The notes under the pieces were generated by a model. The model was not told where the DNA came from, searched no databases, and was given only the letters and a program-made list of their open reading frames with translations. Of a DNA stretch of 43,318 nucleotides, positions 7,189 to 35,677 are shown piece after piece. The stretch is from Candidatus Woesebacteria bacterium (GTDB lineage Bacteria; Patescibacteriota; Microgenomatia; UBA8517; UBA10165). Location of the stretch: positions 1 through 43,318 of the forward strand of contig NZCP01000040.1 in NCBI GenBank assembly GCA_002686465.1, written 5' to 3'. A program made the position numbers and the translations under genes. Numbering within the stretch: position 1 is the stretch's first letter; every line of letters starts with the position of its first letter.

Positions 7189-7240
7189 TTCAGATTGGCA
7201 GACTTCAGATTTCGGATTGCAGATAGTCAGTTTACAGATT
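7189..7240. repeat. Degenerate ~7-bp tandem array (CAGA core), left flank of four-helix-bundle gene
   Basis: CAGA-like cores at 7191, 7199, 7206, 7213, 7220, 7228, 7235. Confidence 0.8.
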
Positions 7241-7640
7241 TCTTCTTTATGTAACTGTTTGCTGGTTCTGCGAACCTTCTCCATGTTTGGCGTAGGCTGT
7301 TCAGTTGTTTTGATAACTCCGTGTACTTTTCGACGATTGATTCGCATGCACCTTTAGGGATTTTGCGGAATCTGCGAGAGAGAATAATTGCTTTTGTTAA
7401 ATGGATAACAACTTCATCACTTTCTGCCATGGCCATTTCGTAAAATCTAGCCGCATCAGCTGGATTCCTTTGTCTTGAGAAGCCCTCTCCGATCAGTGGA
7501 GGAATGGCCTCGCTTGAGTTTATTAGCTGTGTTCTGAATTTTATATGTGGTATAGCGTATGCCACATCGTAAATTTTATCTAGGAGTCGTAGGGAGAGCT
7601 GATAGACCCGAAGATCGGACACCCCTTTTACTGATGGCAT
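7227..7640 (-). CDS. Four-helix-bundle protein (23S rRNA IVP / bAvd-like family)
   Basis: DLRVYQLS...TQLINSSEAIPPLIGEGFSRQ...RFYEMAMAESDEV resembles the family consensus DL.VWQ...Q..RSA.SI..NIAEG..R...F...A.GS..E. Confidence 0.8.
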   Translation of the reverse strand: MPSVKGVSDLRVYQLSLRLLDKIYDVAYAIPHIKFRTQLINSSEAIPPLIGEGFSRQRNPADAARFYEMAMAESDEVVIHLTKAIILSRRFRKIPKGACESIVEKYTELSKQLNSLRQTWRRFAEPANSYIKKKSVN

Positions 7641-7654
7641 GCATCTATATTATC

Positions 7655-7705
7655 AGATCTGTAGTCTGAGGTCTGATAACAGACAACTGATATCTGTTAA
7701 TCTGG
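7655..7705. repeat. Degenerate ~7-bp tandem array (TCTG core), right flank, inverted relative to 7189-7240
   Basis: TCTG-like cores at 7658, 7665, 7672, 7686, 7693, 7701. Confidence 0.8.
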
Positions 7706-11792: not shown

Positions 11793-11824
11793 TATATACT
11801 TAGTATATATCAAGTATATACTAC
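11789..11824. terminator. Inverted repeat between convergent genes; probable bidirectional terminator
   Basis: GTAGTATATACTT (11789-11801) / AAGTATATACTAC (11812-11824), perfect 13-bp stem. Confidence 0.55.
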
Positions 11825-12273
11825 TACTTTAGCTCTACCTTCGCGCCTGCTTCTTCGAGTTTCTTTTTAGCCTCAGCTGCTTCTTCGCTCTTTAAATCTT
11901 TTGCAACTTCTGCCGGAACCTTGTCAGTCATATCTTTTGCTTCTTTAAGTCCCAAATTGGGATCGATTTCTCGAAGCGCTTTAATGACCGAAATTTTATT
12001 TGCTCCTCCATCTGTTAGAACAACTGTTTGAACGGCGGCACTTGCACCTTGCTGTGCTTCGCCTCCATCTGCGGAATCAACTGGTGCTGCAGCTGCTGCT
12101 GCGGGCATAGCACTTACGCCAAGTCTTTCCTGGAGGGATGAAACCAATTCCGAAACTTCAAGAACTGAAAGCTCCTCGATCTCTTTTGCTATTTTTTCAA
12201 GCTTTGGAGAAAGACTTTTGTTTTTTTCTGCCTCGTTTTTATTATCTTTGTTTTCGTCTGTTTGATCAGTCAT
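11824..12273 (-). CDS. rplL: 50S ribosomal protein L7/L12
   Basis: [39 protein letters not shown]; SD GGAGGTGA before ATG 12273. Confidence 0.97.
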
Positions 12274-12294
12274 ATTACTCACCTCCTTAAGTAT

Positions 12295-12390
12295 TAGCTA
12301 ATTTAGCAAATGTAAGCAAAAAGAAAGCAAATATATCGTTTATTCGCTTTTGTTCGCTGAAATTTGTTTGGATTTGCTAGTGTTTTGTGC
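12295..12390. repeat. Inverted pair of ~10-bp periodic arrays (GCNAAT / ATTYGC) spanning the rplJ 3' end
   Basis: Left cores at 12297, 12306, 12316, 12327; right cores at 12342, 12352, 12362, 12372, 12383. Confidence 0.8.
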
Positions 12391-12897
12391 GGCAGATTGC
12401 AGCACAAAAACTAAGTTTTGCATATTTGCCTGCAAGGTTGCTACAAGGGAGTAGGCTGGACCAGCTATAGATCCCACAAGTTGTCCAAATAAGATATTTT
12501 TGGCAGGCAAGCGGGATAGTGCTAAAAGTTTCTCACCATCAAGTATTTCTGCATCAAAAATACCAAACTTCAGCTTTGGTAAGTCATTTTCCTTTTGTGC
12601 CTGACCTAAGACTTGCAAAGGTCCAATTTCGTCTTCCATAGCAAAGACCACAGCGGTTGGTCCAGTCAGTCCTTTATCTATCTTTGATTCAACCTTAACC
12701 TTTGATTTTTTTAATGCGAGCTTAACTAAGGTATTTTTAGCAACTAAAAATATTCCACCAACATCTTTGATTTTTGCCCGTAGTTCACCTAAGTTTTTTG
12801 TTGCGAGACCTTGGTAGTCCACCACGGTTACACTTTTGGCATCTTTTATTCTTGCCGTCAAGTCGTCAACTACTAATGGTTTTTCTGATTTTTTCAT
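12340..12897 (-). CDS. rplJ: 50S ribosomal protein L10
   Basis: VVDYQGL, VAKNTL, LTGPTAVVF, LSRLP; lies between rplA and rplL. Confidence 0.96.
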   Translation of the reverse strand: MKKSEKPLVVDDLTARIKDAKSVTVVDYQGLATKNLGELRAKIKDVGGIFLVAKNTLVKLALKKSKVKVESKIDKGLTGPTAVVFAMEDEIGPLQVLGQAQKENDLPKLKFGIFDAEILDGEKLLALSRLPAKNILFGQLVGSIAGPAYSLVATLQANMQNLVFVLQSAAQNTSKSKQISANKSE

Positions 12898-12934
12898 TTC
12901 TCGTCACTCCGTTACTCGAAACAAGTTTCCTAAA

Positions 12935-13068
12935 AGCAAAAAACCTCGGGTTTACCGAGGCTGTCTTTACCAAGCAACTTGTTACTTAAAACATGTTACC
13001 TGTTACTAGATTGTGCCTCGGTAGGAAATTAATCTCGGCCAATCGGCCAGAACCTACTGTCTTCGGGA
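12935..13068 (-). promoter_or_regulatory. Ribosomal protein L10 leader with terminator hairpin
   Basis: Minus strand CCGAAGACAGTAGG...TAATTTCCTACCGAGG...CCTCGG-TAAAC-CCGAGG-TTTTTT upstream of rplJ; promoter TTGCAT-18-TAGAAT at 13110-13081. Confidence 0.85.
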
Positions 13069-13116
13069 TCTTTGAGTGCAATTCTACAGCATCTACACCA
13101 GAGAATGCAATATTTA

Positions 13117-25867: not shown

Positions 25868-27913
25868 TCATTTTGAGAGTTTCTCTAGCTTATTTTGTAC
25901 TTCCTCATCATCAGGGTCAATATTCTGCAAAACATATTCTAGCTGCTCTCGGGCAAGAGCTTGTTTTCCTAAGGAGTCATAAATTGTTGCAAGCCCAACT
26001 CGACCATCATAGTAGTTTGGTTTGAGGGTTACAGATTCTTCGAGCACTTCTTCTGCCCGCTCAATTTGCCCTAAGCGACCATATAAAACTCCTAAGTTGT
26101 AGCGAACCTTTGGATCGGTCGGAGCAAGCTCGACAGCTTTTTCGAGAACAGGTAGGGCTTCGTGCAGATATTGCTGATCAACTTGGACGAGTCTATATAG
26201 GATAGTAACTCGAGACTTCAAAAGATTTAAATTGTATGGGGAGATGGTAGTGGCATATCTAGAAGCTTCATTGGCTAGTTGCGCGGATGCACCGTCGCCT
26301 TTCTCTTCCAGTTCGAGTGCGATACTAGATGTAATTTTTGCAAGCTGGTCATAGTATCTTGGCTCATCTGTTCGGAGAGATAACGCACTTTCTATTCTTT
26401 CCAGGGACAGAGCATACGATCCCTCTGTAGCTAAATTTTTAGACTTTGTAAAAAGTACATCAGCGTACCAGACATGAAAGACTTTTAGTAACAGGTAACA
26501 TGTAACAAGTATCAGCAGTAGGATGCTAGCGATTTGAAGGATGGAGAATTTTTTGTTTCTACTTGTTACTTCTAACTTGTCACTTGTTACCGACCATGCC
26601 AAAGCAGGAAAGAGGAAAAATAGTATAGCGACATTGACGACCGAGAAACCAAAAAAGTTGGTAATTAAAATGGAAGCATGTCCTGCAAGCAGTGCAGGTA
26701 AAAGATTCTGGCCCGATCGAAGTCTTGAGGCTATCAACCACACAGTTGCCCCAATAAAAATGAGGTATGAGACCAAGCCAAATGTTCCTGTTGTTGCTGC
26801 AAAGTTTAGATATTCGTTGTGCGCTTTGTTATAGAGGAAGTCCCATTCGGAAGTAAGGTTATGCTCAACTGGTCGAAATTGATAATAGGAGTAGGCGAAT
26901 GTCTCAACGCCGGTTCCTGTAAGGGGATATGCTCGCCAAGTGTTAATTGCACCGTTCCATACAATCTTTCGGATTTCCCCGGATTCTGTTCCTCCGGTCT
27001 CCAACACGGTCCCCGTGTTGGGATGATTTACGGTTGGTGGTTTACGATTAATATTATTTTGTATGACTTCTGTTGCACTTGGGGTCCAGGGAGTTCCGAA
27101 AATAGTAACAAGTAACAAGTAGAAAGTGATAAGTAATAGGAAAGGGCGAGTTAGTATTTTAAGGCGATCTTTATACAACCAGGCCATAGTTAACCAAAAA
27201 ACAGCGAAGGATGCTCCAAAGCCGAGTAGTCCTGAGCGGCTTTTTGTAAATAAAATTGCTGTGAAGAAAATAATAGACATACCAATCCACCACCATTTCT
27301 TTTTAGAAATTGCAAATGCCCAAGTGATTGGAATAATAGCTGTAAGCCATGCTGCGAACCAATTCGGCTGACCCAAAGTTGCAAAGATTCGCTCTTGAAC
27401 TTTTTGTACCCAGCAGTCGACCCCAAATTCTTTTTTCATGATAATGCAACTAGGACTTGATCCGAGACGTTCTGCAATTCCCCAAATGGAAACAATTAGT
27501 GCCGAAGCGAGCAGATTACGTATTGCGCTCCTTGTCTCCTGTTTTCCCATATTTGAGACAAACGCCCAGTAAAGAAAAAGGTAGGAAATCGTTGATAGTA
27601 ATCCGCCATGCGATCGAGAGTGATATCCCCAGATAGATGTATGCTGATCAATTGAAAAAACAGTGGAGATGATTTGCGCGGTTAAAAAAAGCAAAAGAGG
27701 AATATCAAGAATAGTGCGCCGAAAGATCAGTTTTCCCCCAAGGATAGATTTTATTGCCCAGGAGGCCGTAATTACGACCGTAATTACGTACGTTAGAATC
27801 ATTTTGTTAAATTCAAAAAGCTCAGAAGTTAGAGGGGTAAAGATGAAGGGGACAAGAAAAAAAAGAAGATAAAAGGAAGATTTGATAATTCTGTCTGCTG
27901 CTTGGAATAACAT
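25868..27913 (-). CDS. O-antigen ligase-like membrane protein with C-terminal TPR repeats
   Basis: Many TM helices; RIFATLGQPN, TKSRSG, GTGVETF, KAHNEYL; TPR (AVELAPTDPKVRYNLG). Confidence 0.9.
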   Translation of the reverse strand: MLFQAADRIIKSSFYLLFFLVPFIFTPLTSELFEFNKMILTYVITVVITASWAIKSILGGKLIFRRTILDIPLLLFLTAQIISTVFSIDQHTSIWGYHSRSHGGLLSTISYLFLYWAFVSNMGKQETRSAIRNLLASALIVSIWGIAERLGSSPSCIIMKKEFGVDCWVQKVQERIFATLGQPNWFAAWLTAIIPITWAFAISKKKWWWIGMSIIFFTAILFTKSRSGLLGFGASFAVFWLTMAWLYKDRLKILTRPFLLLITFYLLLVTIFGTPWTPSATEVIQNNINRKPPTVNHPNTGTVLETGGTESGEIRKIVWNGAINTWRAYPLTGTGVETFAYSYYQFRPVEHNLTSEWDFLYNKAHNEYLNFAATTGTFGLVSYLIFIGATVWLIASRLRSGQNLLPALLAGHASILITNFFGFSVVNVAILFFLFPALAWSVTSDKLEVTSRNKKFSILQIASILLLILVTCYLLLKVFHVWYADVLFTKSKNLATEGSYALSLERIESALSLRTDEPRYYDQLAKITSSIALELEEKGDGASAQLANEASRYATTISPYNLNLLKSRVTILYRLVQVDQQYLHEALPVLEKAVELAPTDPKVRYNLGVLYGRLGQIERAEEVLEESVTLKPNYYDGRVGLATIYDSLGKQALAREQLEYVLQNIDPDDEEVQNKLEKLSK

Positions 27914-34077: not shown

Positions 34078-35205
34078 ATGACAGAACGCGAATCATGGAT
34101 TGCATTTAGTGCGTTTCCACAGATAGGACCTGCACGTTTCACGCTGATTAAGAAATATTTTGGTAATGCAAAAAAAGCATGGAAAGCACCGATAGGGGAA
34201 TATATAAAAATAGGGTTTAGCAAAAAGTTAGCAGACAGTTTTGAGAAGTTCAGAAAAGAAAAATTCGACATCGGGTCGTATTTAGTCCAGTTAGACAAAC
34301 TTGGTATACAGGTCTTAAGGTATGATGATACTGATTACCCAGAAAGGCTAAAAAAGATTGATGATTCGCCATATATCTTATACGTCAGGAAATCTCTAAA
34401 AAGTATCAGAAGTATTAAAAATACCATAGATATCAAAGGCCTGTCTGACGTATCCGTGGCAGTGGTTGGGACGAGAAAGATGACATCATATGGACGCGAA
34501 GTTACAGAAAGATTGGTAACAGAGTTAGTAAACGCAGGGGTTACGATCATTAGTGGGCTTGCATTGGGAATTGATAGTGTTGCACATAGAACTGCGATAG
34601 ATACGGGAGGGCGAACAATCGCAGTTTTAGGTGGTGGATTGGACGAAATTTACCCTCCGTCTAATCGACAGCTAGCAGCCGAGATACTTGGAAAAGATCG
34701 AGGACTTCTGTTATCCGAATATCCATTATTTTATCCATCTATGCCCCAAAACTTCCCTGTCAGAAACCGTATAGTTTCCGGTCTTTCGCAAGGTATTGTA
34801 GTTGTTGAGGGCATGAAGAAATCGGGTACTCTTTTGACTGCATCGAGTGCTGCCTCCCAAGGAAGAGAGGTATTTGCGGTTCCTGGACCTATTACATCCC
34901 CTACATCACAAGCGCCGAATTTTTTGATTAGACAGGGTGCTAAGCTTGTTGAGAGTGCAGAGGATATTCTTGAGGAATTGAAAATCGAATCTAGAGTTGT
35001 GAAGATGGAAGCTAGAAAGGTAATTCCTGAGACGAAAGAAGAGAAGAAACTCTTGAAGGTTTTGGAGACAGAAGGGTTAGATATTGATACTATTGTTAGA
35101 ATGAGTGGTTTGCAAGCAGGAGTTGTGCTGGGTACACTGACGCAAATGGAGCTTAAAGGCTTAGTGCGGAACATGGGAGGTATATATCGCACTAATAGCG
35201 AATAG
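34078..35205 (+). CDS. dprA: DNA-processing protein DprA (Smf)
   Basis: VAVVGTR, ISGLALGIDSVAH, FPVRNRIVSG, REVFAVPG, C-terminal winged helix. Confidence 0.97.
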   Translation: MTERESWIAFSAFPQIGPARFTLIKKYFGNAKKAWKAPIGEYIKIGFSKKLADSFEKFRKEKFDIGSYLVQLDKLGIQVLRYDDTDYPERLKKIDDSPYILYVRKSLKSIRSIKNTIDIKGLSDVSVAVVGTRKMTSYGREVTERLVTELVNAGVTIISGLALGIDSVAHRTAIDTGGRTIAVLGGGLDEIYPPSNRQLAAEILGKDRGLLLSEYPLFYPSMPQNFPVRNRIVSGLSQGIVVVEGMKKSGTLLTASSAASQGREVFAVPGPITSPTSQAPNFLIRQGAKLVESAEDILEELKIESRVVKMEARKVIPETKEEKKLLKVLETEGLDIDTIVRMSGLQAGVVLGTLTQMELKGLVRNMGGIYRTNSE

Positions 35206-35240
35206 AGCAAATTAAAGCTAATGAGCACGAATAAAAGCAT
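35190..35240. repeat. ~10-bp periodic array (GCNAAT), left flank of GxxExxY gene
   Basis: Cores GCGAAT 35198, GCAAAT 35207, GCTAAT 35217, ACGAAT 35227. Confidence 0.8.
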
Positions 35241-35619
35241 GGAACGAATAATATACCCTCGATTATCGTATAAAGTGGTTGGGGTTTTGTTCGATGTGCA
35301 CCGCAAGCTTGGGAACAGGTTGCAAGAGAAATATTACCAGCGAGCTATTGCTTTGGGATTCAAGAAGGCAAATATTCCATTTAAAGAACAGGCGTTAGTC
35401 CAACTGGAGTACGAGAGCGAGCCCATTGGGCGATATTTTGTTGACTTTGTAATTAGTAATAAGATAGCCTTGGATATTAAAGCTGTACCCAAGACTAGCA
35501 AGCATGATTACGATCAAATGCTTGCTTATTTGCATGTTTTAAAGTTAAAGTTAGGTGTCATTGCAAATTTTAGAGCGCAGAATCTGACTTTTAAAAGATT
35601 GGTCAATTCCAGAATTTGA
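35221..35619 (+). CDS. GxxExxY protein (PD-(D/E)XK nuclease-like); start 35221 or 35239
   Basis: VHRKLGNRLQEKYYQRA, YFVDFVISNKIALDIKA, QMLAYL, LGVIANF. Confidence 0.92.
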   Translation: MSTNKSMERIIYPRLSYKVVGVLFDVHRKLGNRLQEKYYQRAIALGFKKANIPFKEQALVQLEYESEPIGRYFVDFVISNKIALDIKAVPKTSKHDYDQMLAYLHVLKLKLGVIANFRAQNLTFKRLVNSRI

Positions 35620-35677
35620 ATTTGTACTATTTGCTTAAATTCGTTAAAATTTGCTGTTATTTGCTGGTAAATTCATT
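35618..35677. repeat. ~10-bp periodic array (ATTYGC), right flank, inverted relative to the left flank
   Basis: Cores ATTTGT 35620, ATTTGC 35629, ATTCGT 35639, ATTTGC 35649, ATTTGC 35659. Confidence 0.8.

Follow-up and report, generated by a model that had tools for sequence, protein, structure and literature searches.

Between the genes for ribosomal proteins L10 and L7/L12, the genome analysed here carries an inverted array of short words that overlaps the end of rplJ. The question is whether this array serves the ribosomal operon or belongs with the arrays that flank a GxxExxY gene in the same window. An earlier note, made from the letters of the window alone, had taken it for a gene-less copy of those arrays, either an empty site or a non-autonomous derivative. 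What follows points to a gene-less copy belonging to an undescribed class of repeat elements and not to a device that controls the ribosomal operon.

The window is the whole of contig C40 (43,318 nucleotides) of a genome labelled G000, whose assembly comprises 901,573 bp (0.9 Mb) in 59 contigs, with 42% G+C and 90.6% completeness. Labels beginning with G, C and L denote genomes, contigs and extracted loci, respectively.

The hairpin between rplJ and rplL

The features of the operon that are needed below are as follows, the bit scores of the arms being those of model R1, which was built from the four arms of the two loci compared here.

11824-12273, minus strand: rplL (L7/L12); likely start ATG at 12273, alternative upstream GTG at 12282
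12280-12289, minus strand: rplL Shine-Dalgarno AAGGAGGTGA, preceding the likely ATG
12296-12332, plus strand: 3' arm of the hairpin in the mRNA; AGCTAAT, AGCAAAT, AGCAAAA, AGCAAAT at spacings of 9, 10 and 11; 32.2 bits
12333-12341: loop of 9 nt between the arms
12342-12378, minus strand: 5' arm on the transcribed strand; AGCAAAT, AACAAAT, AGCGAAC, AGCGAAT at 10-bp spacing (10, 10, 10); 34.5 bits
12340-12897, minus strand: rplJ (ribosomal protein L10, 185 aa); last 12 residues array-encoded, with no counterpart in relatives
12928-13084, minus strand: L10 leader (RF00557) upstream of rplJ; 42.8 bits, gathering score 44, E 3.8e-5

The hairpin as a whole measures 83 bp (12296-12378), with four AGCNAAT words opposite four inverted copies. 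Direct reading gives the plus-strand cores GCTAAT (12297), GCAAAT (12306), GCAAAA (12316) and GCAAAT (12327) and the inverted cores ATTCGC (12342), GTTCGC (12352), ATTTGT (12362) and ATTTGC (12372), in agreement with the cores and the gap of about 9 nt reported before. When the preceding A is included all eight units fit AGCNAAT with at most one mismatch; the plus-strand units then begin at 12296, 12305, 12315 and 12326, and the inverted ones at 12342, 12352, 12362 and 12372. TRF detects the arrays only in part.

The right arm is coding. It supplies the end of L10, ...NTSKSKQISANKSE-stop, in which the residues SKSKQISANKSE come from the 5' arm and the stop codon TAA follows the fourth unit; this codon (complement of 12340-12342) has its first two bases in the loop and its third in the innermost arm unit. 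Six nucleotides separate the end of the 3' arm from the rplL Shine-Dalgarno, so that the hairpin does sit just upstream of that site, as had been claimed. Between the arms there is no GxxExxY ORF, only the 9-nt loop, which makes this a gene-less form. The sequences bordering the hairpin, AACACT and AATACT, amount to no more than an imperfect repeat of 6 bp, and no target-site duplication is evident at the GxxExxY cassette.

A search of the hairpin and spacer for a terminator-like site (a G+C-rich stem with a T run) or a promoter-like site found neither. No Rfam family matched at E up to 1 in the interval 12283-12390, and the hairpin itself gave no match to RF00557; the leader of that family is the operon's known autoregulatory RNA and is separate from the hairpin. 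Contigs of a public run cover 12159-12334 and 12306-12473 with zero differences, although the run may be the source sample and hence not independent. The contigs of this run (X1), at a depth of about 3 and breaking inside the hairpin, contained no variant or joint, and they gave no sign of a presence/absence polymorphism or an excision product at the hairpin. The sequencing runs listed comprise two of DNA and none of RNA.

The GxxExxY cassette of the same genome

The arrays with which the hairpin is compared lie 23 kb away from it and enclose a GxxExxY gene that has dprA (34078-35205) on its 5' side and topA on the other.

35197-35250, plus strand: left array; AGCGAAT, AGCAAAT, AGCTAAT, then weaker ACGAAT-type units; overlaps the GxxExxY start codons
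35239-35619, plus strand: GxxExxY gene, an intact ORF; TIGR04256 2.3e-28, PF13366 1.8e-27; upstream ATG at 35221 also possible
35614-35665, minus strand: right array; ATTTGCT-type units at 10-bp spacing on the plus strand; ends 14 nt before the topA start

The gene is present as a single copy in G000, and its cassette has about six units per arm as against four in the hairpin. DprA ends in RTNSE-stop, with SE-stop lying within the first cassette unit, AGCGAAT; the parallel drawn earlier between the L10 and DprA tails, each finished by an array, is therefore correct.

In the one survey that we found, the GxxExxY family (TIGR04256, PF13366) is listed as having unknown function and multiple transfers (PMC3424549). 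The G000 protein keeps D69, D79 and K81 at the PD-(D/E)XK positions (the middle position of D...(D/E)xK is E in at least 90% of 59 GxxExxY sequences), and its predicted structure (pLDDT 93.2) has a minimal PD-(D/E)XK fold, the nearest solved structures being Cas4 SSO0001 (E 1.9e-4), lambda exonuclease and Hjc (TM 0.50/0.53). Because the catalytic D...(D/E)xK residues are kept and the fold is confidently modelled, the putative nuclease looks functional. The predicted fold is that of a generic nuclease and implies no specific function; a sequence search of the PDB returned only chance-level matches to Pcc1 and no solved relative.

The match between the two loci

The hexamer GCAAAT at up to one mismatch misses both right arms, which contain units with two mismatches, and we therefore used AGCNAAT, defining a chain as units with at most one mismatch spaced 9-11 bp apart. 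There are five chains of at least three units in the whole 901,573-bp genome, of which four correspond to the arms of the two loci. In ten Markov genomes of order 3 the number of such chains was 0-5 each; chains of at least four units occurred once in all ten together, compared with three in the real genome. Because the word of this chain model had been derived from both loci, we also ran a one-sided test with weight matrices built from one locus only. The rplJ/rplL matrix scored 39.0 and 32.8 bits on the GxxExxY flanks, the next best score in the genome being 25.8 bits and the maxima of 12 null genomes 20.4-28.3 bits. Conversely, the GxxExxY matrix scored 37.2 and 35.8 bits on the rplJ/rplL arms, with 22.9 bits for the next best in the genome and null maxima of 19.7-24.6 bits.

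Each locus thus finds the other and nothing else above the null, and apart from the two loci the 0.9-Mb genome has no such AGCNAAT arrays at a 10-bp period. Aligned over four units, the four arms have a mean column identity of 77%. The claim of a common consensus and period consequently holds in a reciprocal form that is exclusive within the genome, and the unit profiles do cross-match. The claim of a common polarity is also true, yet it is only a 1-in-2 statement (inward or outward), because an inverted repeat reads identically on both strands.

Model R1 scores 32-34.5 bits on the four arms from which it was made and at most 16.5 bits in the genomes of 60 relatives. The leading A of AGC is present in 8/8 units at rplJ/rplL and in 6/7 units of the cassette; by eye, the flanks of L092, L122, L139, L093, L144 and L108 mostly have T or C before GC.

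What stands of the original proposal is family membership, on the strength of word, period, polarity and exclusivity, together with an array-encoded L10 tail that is not conserved. We regard it as highly probable that the rplJ/rplL hairpin belongs, in gene-less form, to the same repeat family as the resident GxxExxY cassette.

Word arrays around GxxExxY genes in other genomes

In the order of G000 the GxxExxY gene is sporadic, occurring in 8 of 61 genomes at one copy each, and seven of the eight genes, including all seven that score well, are directly flanked by inverted phased word arrays; the divergent copy in L037 has no flanking arrays. The words differ by lineage: C(N)GAT ... ATC(N)G in G025, G008, G010 and G036, TCACAG ... 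CTGTGA in G003, and xxCNAAT ... ATTNGxx in G000 and G041.

We also collected 80 loci on genome contigs coding for proteins related to that of G000 (identity of 34-56% in the best segment), from Patescibacteria, Bacteroidota, Margulisiibacteriota, records labelled Bdellovibrionales and Gammaproteobacteria, and one Nanoarchaeota record. Two loci truncated at the end of a contig and one whose flank was too short were left out, leaving 77, and 283 pseudo-cassettes shifted by 1,000 or 1,600 bp inside the same loci served as controls. At least three phased copies of one 6-mer, on both flanks and inverted, were found in 35/77 loci and in 0/283 controls; with at least two copies the counts were 67/77 and 51/283. 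In this protein clade the word is almost always TACNAAT or GCNAAT, its fourth letter free as in G000. At least three exact phased CNAAT units pointing inward occur on at least one flank in 52/77 loci and on both in 27/77, compared with 4/77 and 1/77 for exact units pointing outward, and units of the ATCNG or TCACAG type occur in none of the 77. The words follow the protein clade across phyla and not the host, and different clades within one order carry different words.

Unit spacing across the family ranges over 7-12 bp, with a mode of 8 and with 9, 10 and 11 all frequent, which weakens a strict model of one binding site per helical turn. In alignment A4 (17 arms from 15 loci) the spacing of TACNAAT is uneven, commonly 8 bp, then 11-12 and then 9-10, a pattern that suggests word pairs as a higher unit.

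The cassette ORF fills exactly the space between the innermost units, with its start in or beside the last left unit and its stop abutting the first right unit. Four of 56 sampled GxxExxY genes are broken (L092, L115, L132 and L144). Three of these are interrupted by one in-frame stop each, where Q or Y is conserved, and the fourth by several stops or frameshifts.

The dprA-topA junction itself recurs. A cassette lies exactly there in L139 (1158-5069), L092 and L122 as well, its words being of the GCNAAT type; since L092 and L122 are related (68% identity in DprA), the number of lineages is three when G000 is counted. In 29 relatives of G000, dprA adjoins topA with no GxxExxY cassette. The identity of GxxExxY relative to that of DprA and TopA is mixed, and we read dprA-topA as a junction that may simply be permissive and not as a proven target.

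Gene-less hairpins in other genomes

The genomes of L139, L092 and L122, which have GCNAAT cassettes, also hold gene-less GCNAAT hairpins (L178, L176, L173, L177 and L183). One of these (L183, 1470-1545, in G063) lies directly between the terminator-like stem of an L10 leader and the rplJ start codon; the G063 cassette is at dprA-topA, so that the same two operons are involved as in G000. Model R1 gives at most 14.6 bits on the genomes of L139, L092, L122, L093 and L108, and its E-values understate these matches, since several prove on inspection to be real hairpins.

For a second model, R2, we used 17 TACNAAT arms from other phyla. It reaches at least 22 bits in just one of the 61 genomes of G000's order, G041, which is also the only one there with a TACNAAT-type cassette. 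In G041 the cassette arms score 26.0 and 22.4 bits, a gene-less hairpin at groES-groEL 30.8 bits and a further gene-less hairpin, on C6, 17 bits; the gene-less TACNAAT hairpin (L187, about 1440-1540, on G041 C30) has 5 + 5 units and fills the groES-groEL junction. With G041 and the genomes of L139, L092 and L122, there are four cassette-bearing genomes besides G000 in which gene-less hairpins share the word type of the cassette. The dependence of word hairpins on the nuclease is not absolute, because weaker yet real TACCAAT hairpins occur in G011 (L189) and G033 (L188), neither of which has a TIGR04256 match. The hairpin in G033 (about 1500-1600 of L188) seems to interrupt a 16S rRNA gene in its 5' part, in the manner of an intervening sequence.

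The junction in relatives of G000

The L10 equivalog model NF000955 spans residues 5-171 of 185, and tblastn alignments with 29 relatives end at query residues 166-182. The relatives' L10 stops 4-13 residues past the LVYIL motif, as against 19 in G000, and the 12 array-encoded residues have no counterpart in any of the 29. Most of these genomes have a near-zero spacer between rplJ and rplL, often with the Shine-Dalgarno within the L10 tail (GGE-stop), and none of the 29 has AGCNAAT arrays at this junction. The L10 tail and the spacer are thus not conserved among these relatives. The earlier note had suggested looking for versions of the junction with a GxxExxY gene or without an array. Tail and array have no counterpart in the 29 relatives, and a GxxExxY gene at rplJ-rplL was found in none of them and in none of the 80 GxxExxY loci. 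The 60 relatives include no genome of the same genus, and metagenome contigs searched with L10 gave six loci, the best at 46% identity, with no close relative among them.

Other, unrelated hairpins occupy rplJ-rplL in at least 9 of the 29 relatives: seven are made of other short words (L002, L004, L008, L016, L017, L018 and L030) and two are G+C-rich (L023 and L027). In G010 the same hairpin element of ATTTGAA words is present at both rplJ-rplL (L017) and dprA-topA (L052); it is unrelated to the GxxExxY words of that genome.

Folding of the arrays

The predicted RNA fold of the hairpin region is weak and has no sense bias. Its energy is -22.9 kcal/mol for 131 nt (z -1.36), and 21 of 200 shuffled sequences fold at least as well. 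Folding is more favourable for the antisense than for the sense strand (-25.1 vs -18.7), and among eight cassettes the sense duplex is the more stable in four and the antisense in three, with one tie. A by-eye impression that G-U wobble pairs favour the transcribed strand was not borne out by these energies. In the minimum-energy fold the rplL Shine-Dalgarno lies outside the main stem, within a small separate local stem. The words are conserved, the spacers that separate them are for the most part unable to pair, and the fold is weak; this pattern appears more in keeping with a repeated word that is recognised than with a helix under selection.

Comparison with known repeat systems

We found no paper that links GxxExxY, PDDEXK_3, PF13366 or TIGR04256 to repeats in a search of the main texts of papers. 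The closest published analogue is, judged by shared features, the REPIN/RAYT system. As far as the sections of Bertels and Rainey (2011; PMC3116915) used here describe it, that system likewise consists of inverted doublets of a short repeat, extragenic and capable of forming hairpins; these repeats also flank a gene, present once, for an enzyme that acts on nucleic acids, other copies lack the gene, and the repeat type is specific to the associated gene lineage (PMC3116915). Set against what those sections describe, the flanked gene here encodes a minimal PD-(D/E)XK nuclease (TIGR04256/PF13366) and not an HUH/Y1 transposase, the arms are 3-7 phased copies of a 6-7-nt word and not one REP palindrome, and G000 has one gene-less copy instead of hundreds. 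The copies here also lie inside operons, where they overlap stop and start codons, and no transposition intermediate is known for the GxxExxY arrays.

Other small repeats are less close. MITEs and Rickettsia palindromic elements are small palindromic non-coding insertions in or next to genes that can be translated within the host protein, and the array-encoded tails of L10 and DprA resemble them in this respect. However, there is no DDE-transposase parent here, the arms are word arrays, and the terminal inverted repeat with target duplication expected of a MITE is not clear. Cyanobacterial STRR sequences are heptamer simple-sequence repeats. The GGGNATC repeats of Xanthomonas are also tandem short units, enriched between co-oriented ORFs and near stop and start codons, but in the account of Rehm et al. 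(2015; PMC4692102), as far as it is used here, they form direct G-rich arrays with quadruplex potential, and the same part of that account mentions neither an associated nuclease gene nor inverted arms (PMC4692102).

Origin of the hairpin and alternative explanations

The reading that we favour on balance is that the hairpin is a gene-less family member inserted at rplJ-rplL, with a REPIN/RAYT-like relation to the resident nuclease. On this reading the hairpin would have entered the junction, exchanging the last few codons and the stop of rplJ for element sequence and leaving the rplL ribosome-binding site intact. The resident PD-(D/E)XK nuclease would recognise the repeated word on DNA and might spread or maintain non-autonomous hairpins in trans, as RAYT does REPINs. 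This mobilisation in trans, suggested by analogy, we put forward only tentatively. With its single gene-less copy (in 901 kb at 90.6% completeness), G000 does not offer the set of copies on which an inference of transposition could be based. Word and protein can also co-vary without recognition, if a gene and its flanks simply descend together. For the ribosomal operon the insertion most likely has a neutral or slight effect.

A related possibility is that rplJ-rplL is an empty or vacated site, either because an ORF was lost precisely from between its arms or because hairpins come first and the ORF moves into their loops in a homing-like way. The exact fit of the cassette ORF between its innermost units implies that an ORF-less form would consist of arms and a short loop, just as at rplJ-rplL, and the 4/56 broken genes point to decay of the gene part. 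However, we consider this unlikely: the hairpin has four units per arm where the cassette has about six, its 9-nt loop holds no ORF remnant, neither the 80 loci nor the 29 relatives have the gene at this junction, and no obvious mechanism would delete an ORF precisely between inverted arms. An origin as a host-generated simple repeat, through slippage or template switching, with the GxxExxY gene merely sitting in one such hairpin and no functional tie between them, would accord with the wealth of other word hairpins in G000 and its relatives (mostly of 7-bp units), with the other hairpins at rplJ-rplL in at least 9/29 relatives and with the TACCAAT hairpins of the cassette-less G011 and G033. 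It is nevertheless very improbable, given that AGCNAAT at a 10-bp period is confined to the two loci in G000, that array words track the GxxExxY clade across phyla and not the host, that none of the 283 shifted controls has such arrays, and that heptamer hairpins have a gene family of their own, in that PF05635 genes are flanked by the same heptamers.

The remaining alternative acts at the RNA level: the hairpin would be a processing or stability element, like the rRNA intervening sequences excised by RNase III, and would tune the translation of rplL relative to rplJ. To our knowledge such excision is documented for rRNA intervening sequences only, and the computed folds of the GxxExxY arrays give it no support. 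The location within the operon transcript, 6 nt upstream of the rplL Shine-Dalgarno, would suit such a role, and so would the word hairpin of this kind inside a 16S rRNA gene in G033. In a methanogen, according to the part of the report used here, processing within rplA-rplJ-rplL enhanced rplL translation (PMC5499594). Also, L12 dimers bind sites of about ten residues at the L10 C-terminus, as stated in the portion of the source cited here (PMC3299993), and a role of the hairpin in the L10:L12 ratio, as the earlier note had proposed, is possible in principle but gains no support from the fold, which leaves the Shine-Dalgarno outside the main stem, or from the junction, which varies freely among relatives. 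On the other side are the weak fold (21/200 shuffles as good or better), the more stable antisense strand with no consistent sense bias over eight cassettes, a junction that is not conserved in 29 relatives, the lack of any Rfam family matching the hairpin, and an operon that already has its L10 leader. Taken together these make an RNA-level element distinctly improbable.

For the rplJ-rplL locus alone, insertion of a gene-less family member is a modest result and is probably neutral for the ribosomal operon. The wider interest lies in the large GxxExxY family, which gains a hypothesis that the words are the DNA target of the protein; what makes it testable is the consistent signature of phased inverted arrays whose words go with the protein clade and which recur without the gene in the same genomes. 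The repeat family would also account for odd, non-conserved tails on essential proteins and for hairpins inside core operons of ultra-small bacteria, and such hairpins should not be read as regulatory RNAs. In its boldest form, which is speculative and rather unlikely as a whole, the proposal would make GxxExxY proteins the enzymes of an undescribed, phylum-spanning selfish DNA, a PD-(D/E)XK analogue of REPIN/RAYT, each nuclease recognising its own phased 6-7-nt words, with hairpins with and without the gene colonising the tightest junctions of conserved operons (dprA-topA, rplJ-rplL, leader-rplJ and groES-groEL) and rewriting the C-termini of essential proteins such as L10 on landing.

Other word hairpins in the same genome

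Intervening sequences of 23S rRNA may bear an ORF, and PF05635 (23S_rRNA_IVP) is a four-helix bundle family of this kind. G000 has four PF05635 genes: 7296-7616 of the window (minus strand), C12:7513-7824, C57:42882-43193 and C33:5-232. The one in the window is flanked by inverted arrays of CAGAT-type heptamers at 7190-7240 and 7655-7705. G000 contains many heptamer hairpins without a gene; those of CAGAT-type heptamers occur on C9 (3856-3961) and C50 (9552-9657 and 10092-10169). As in the GxxExxY cassettes, a small ORF is enclosed by inverted tandem arrays and gene-less hairpins of the same word exist elsewhere, but the gene family is another and the word period is 7 bp. The heptamer hairpins with PF05635 are thus a parallel system that coexists with the GxxExxY arrays in G000.

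Further arrays were noted on other contigs and in the window. Upstream of a tRNA gene, C9 (1930-1972) carries four AAATCGTGTT-like decamers as a direct array, for which an inverted partner was not seen. In the window a hairpin of GTAACAn heptamers (26488-26515 facing 26560-26590) is followed 514 bp on by an AGTAACA array (27104-27136), and similar GTAACA hairpins lie on C49 (5407-5481) and C50 (16001-16077); these GTAACA arrays overlap the ends of ORFs, as the array at the end of L10 does.
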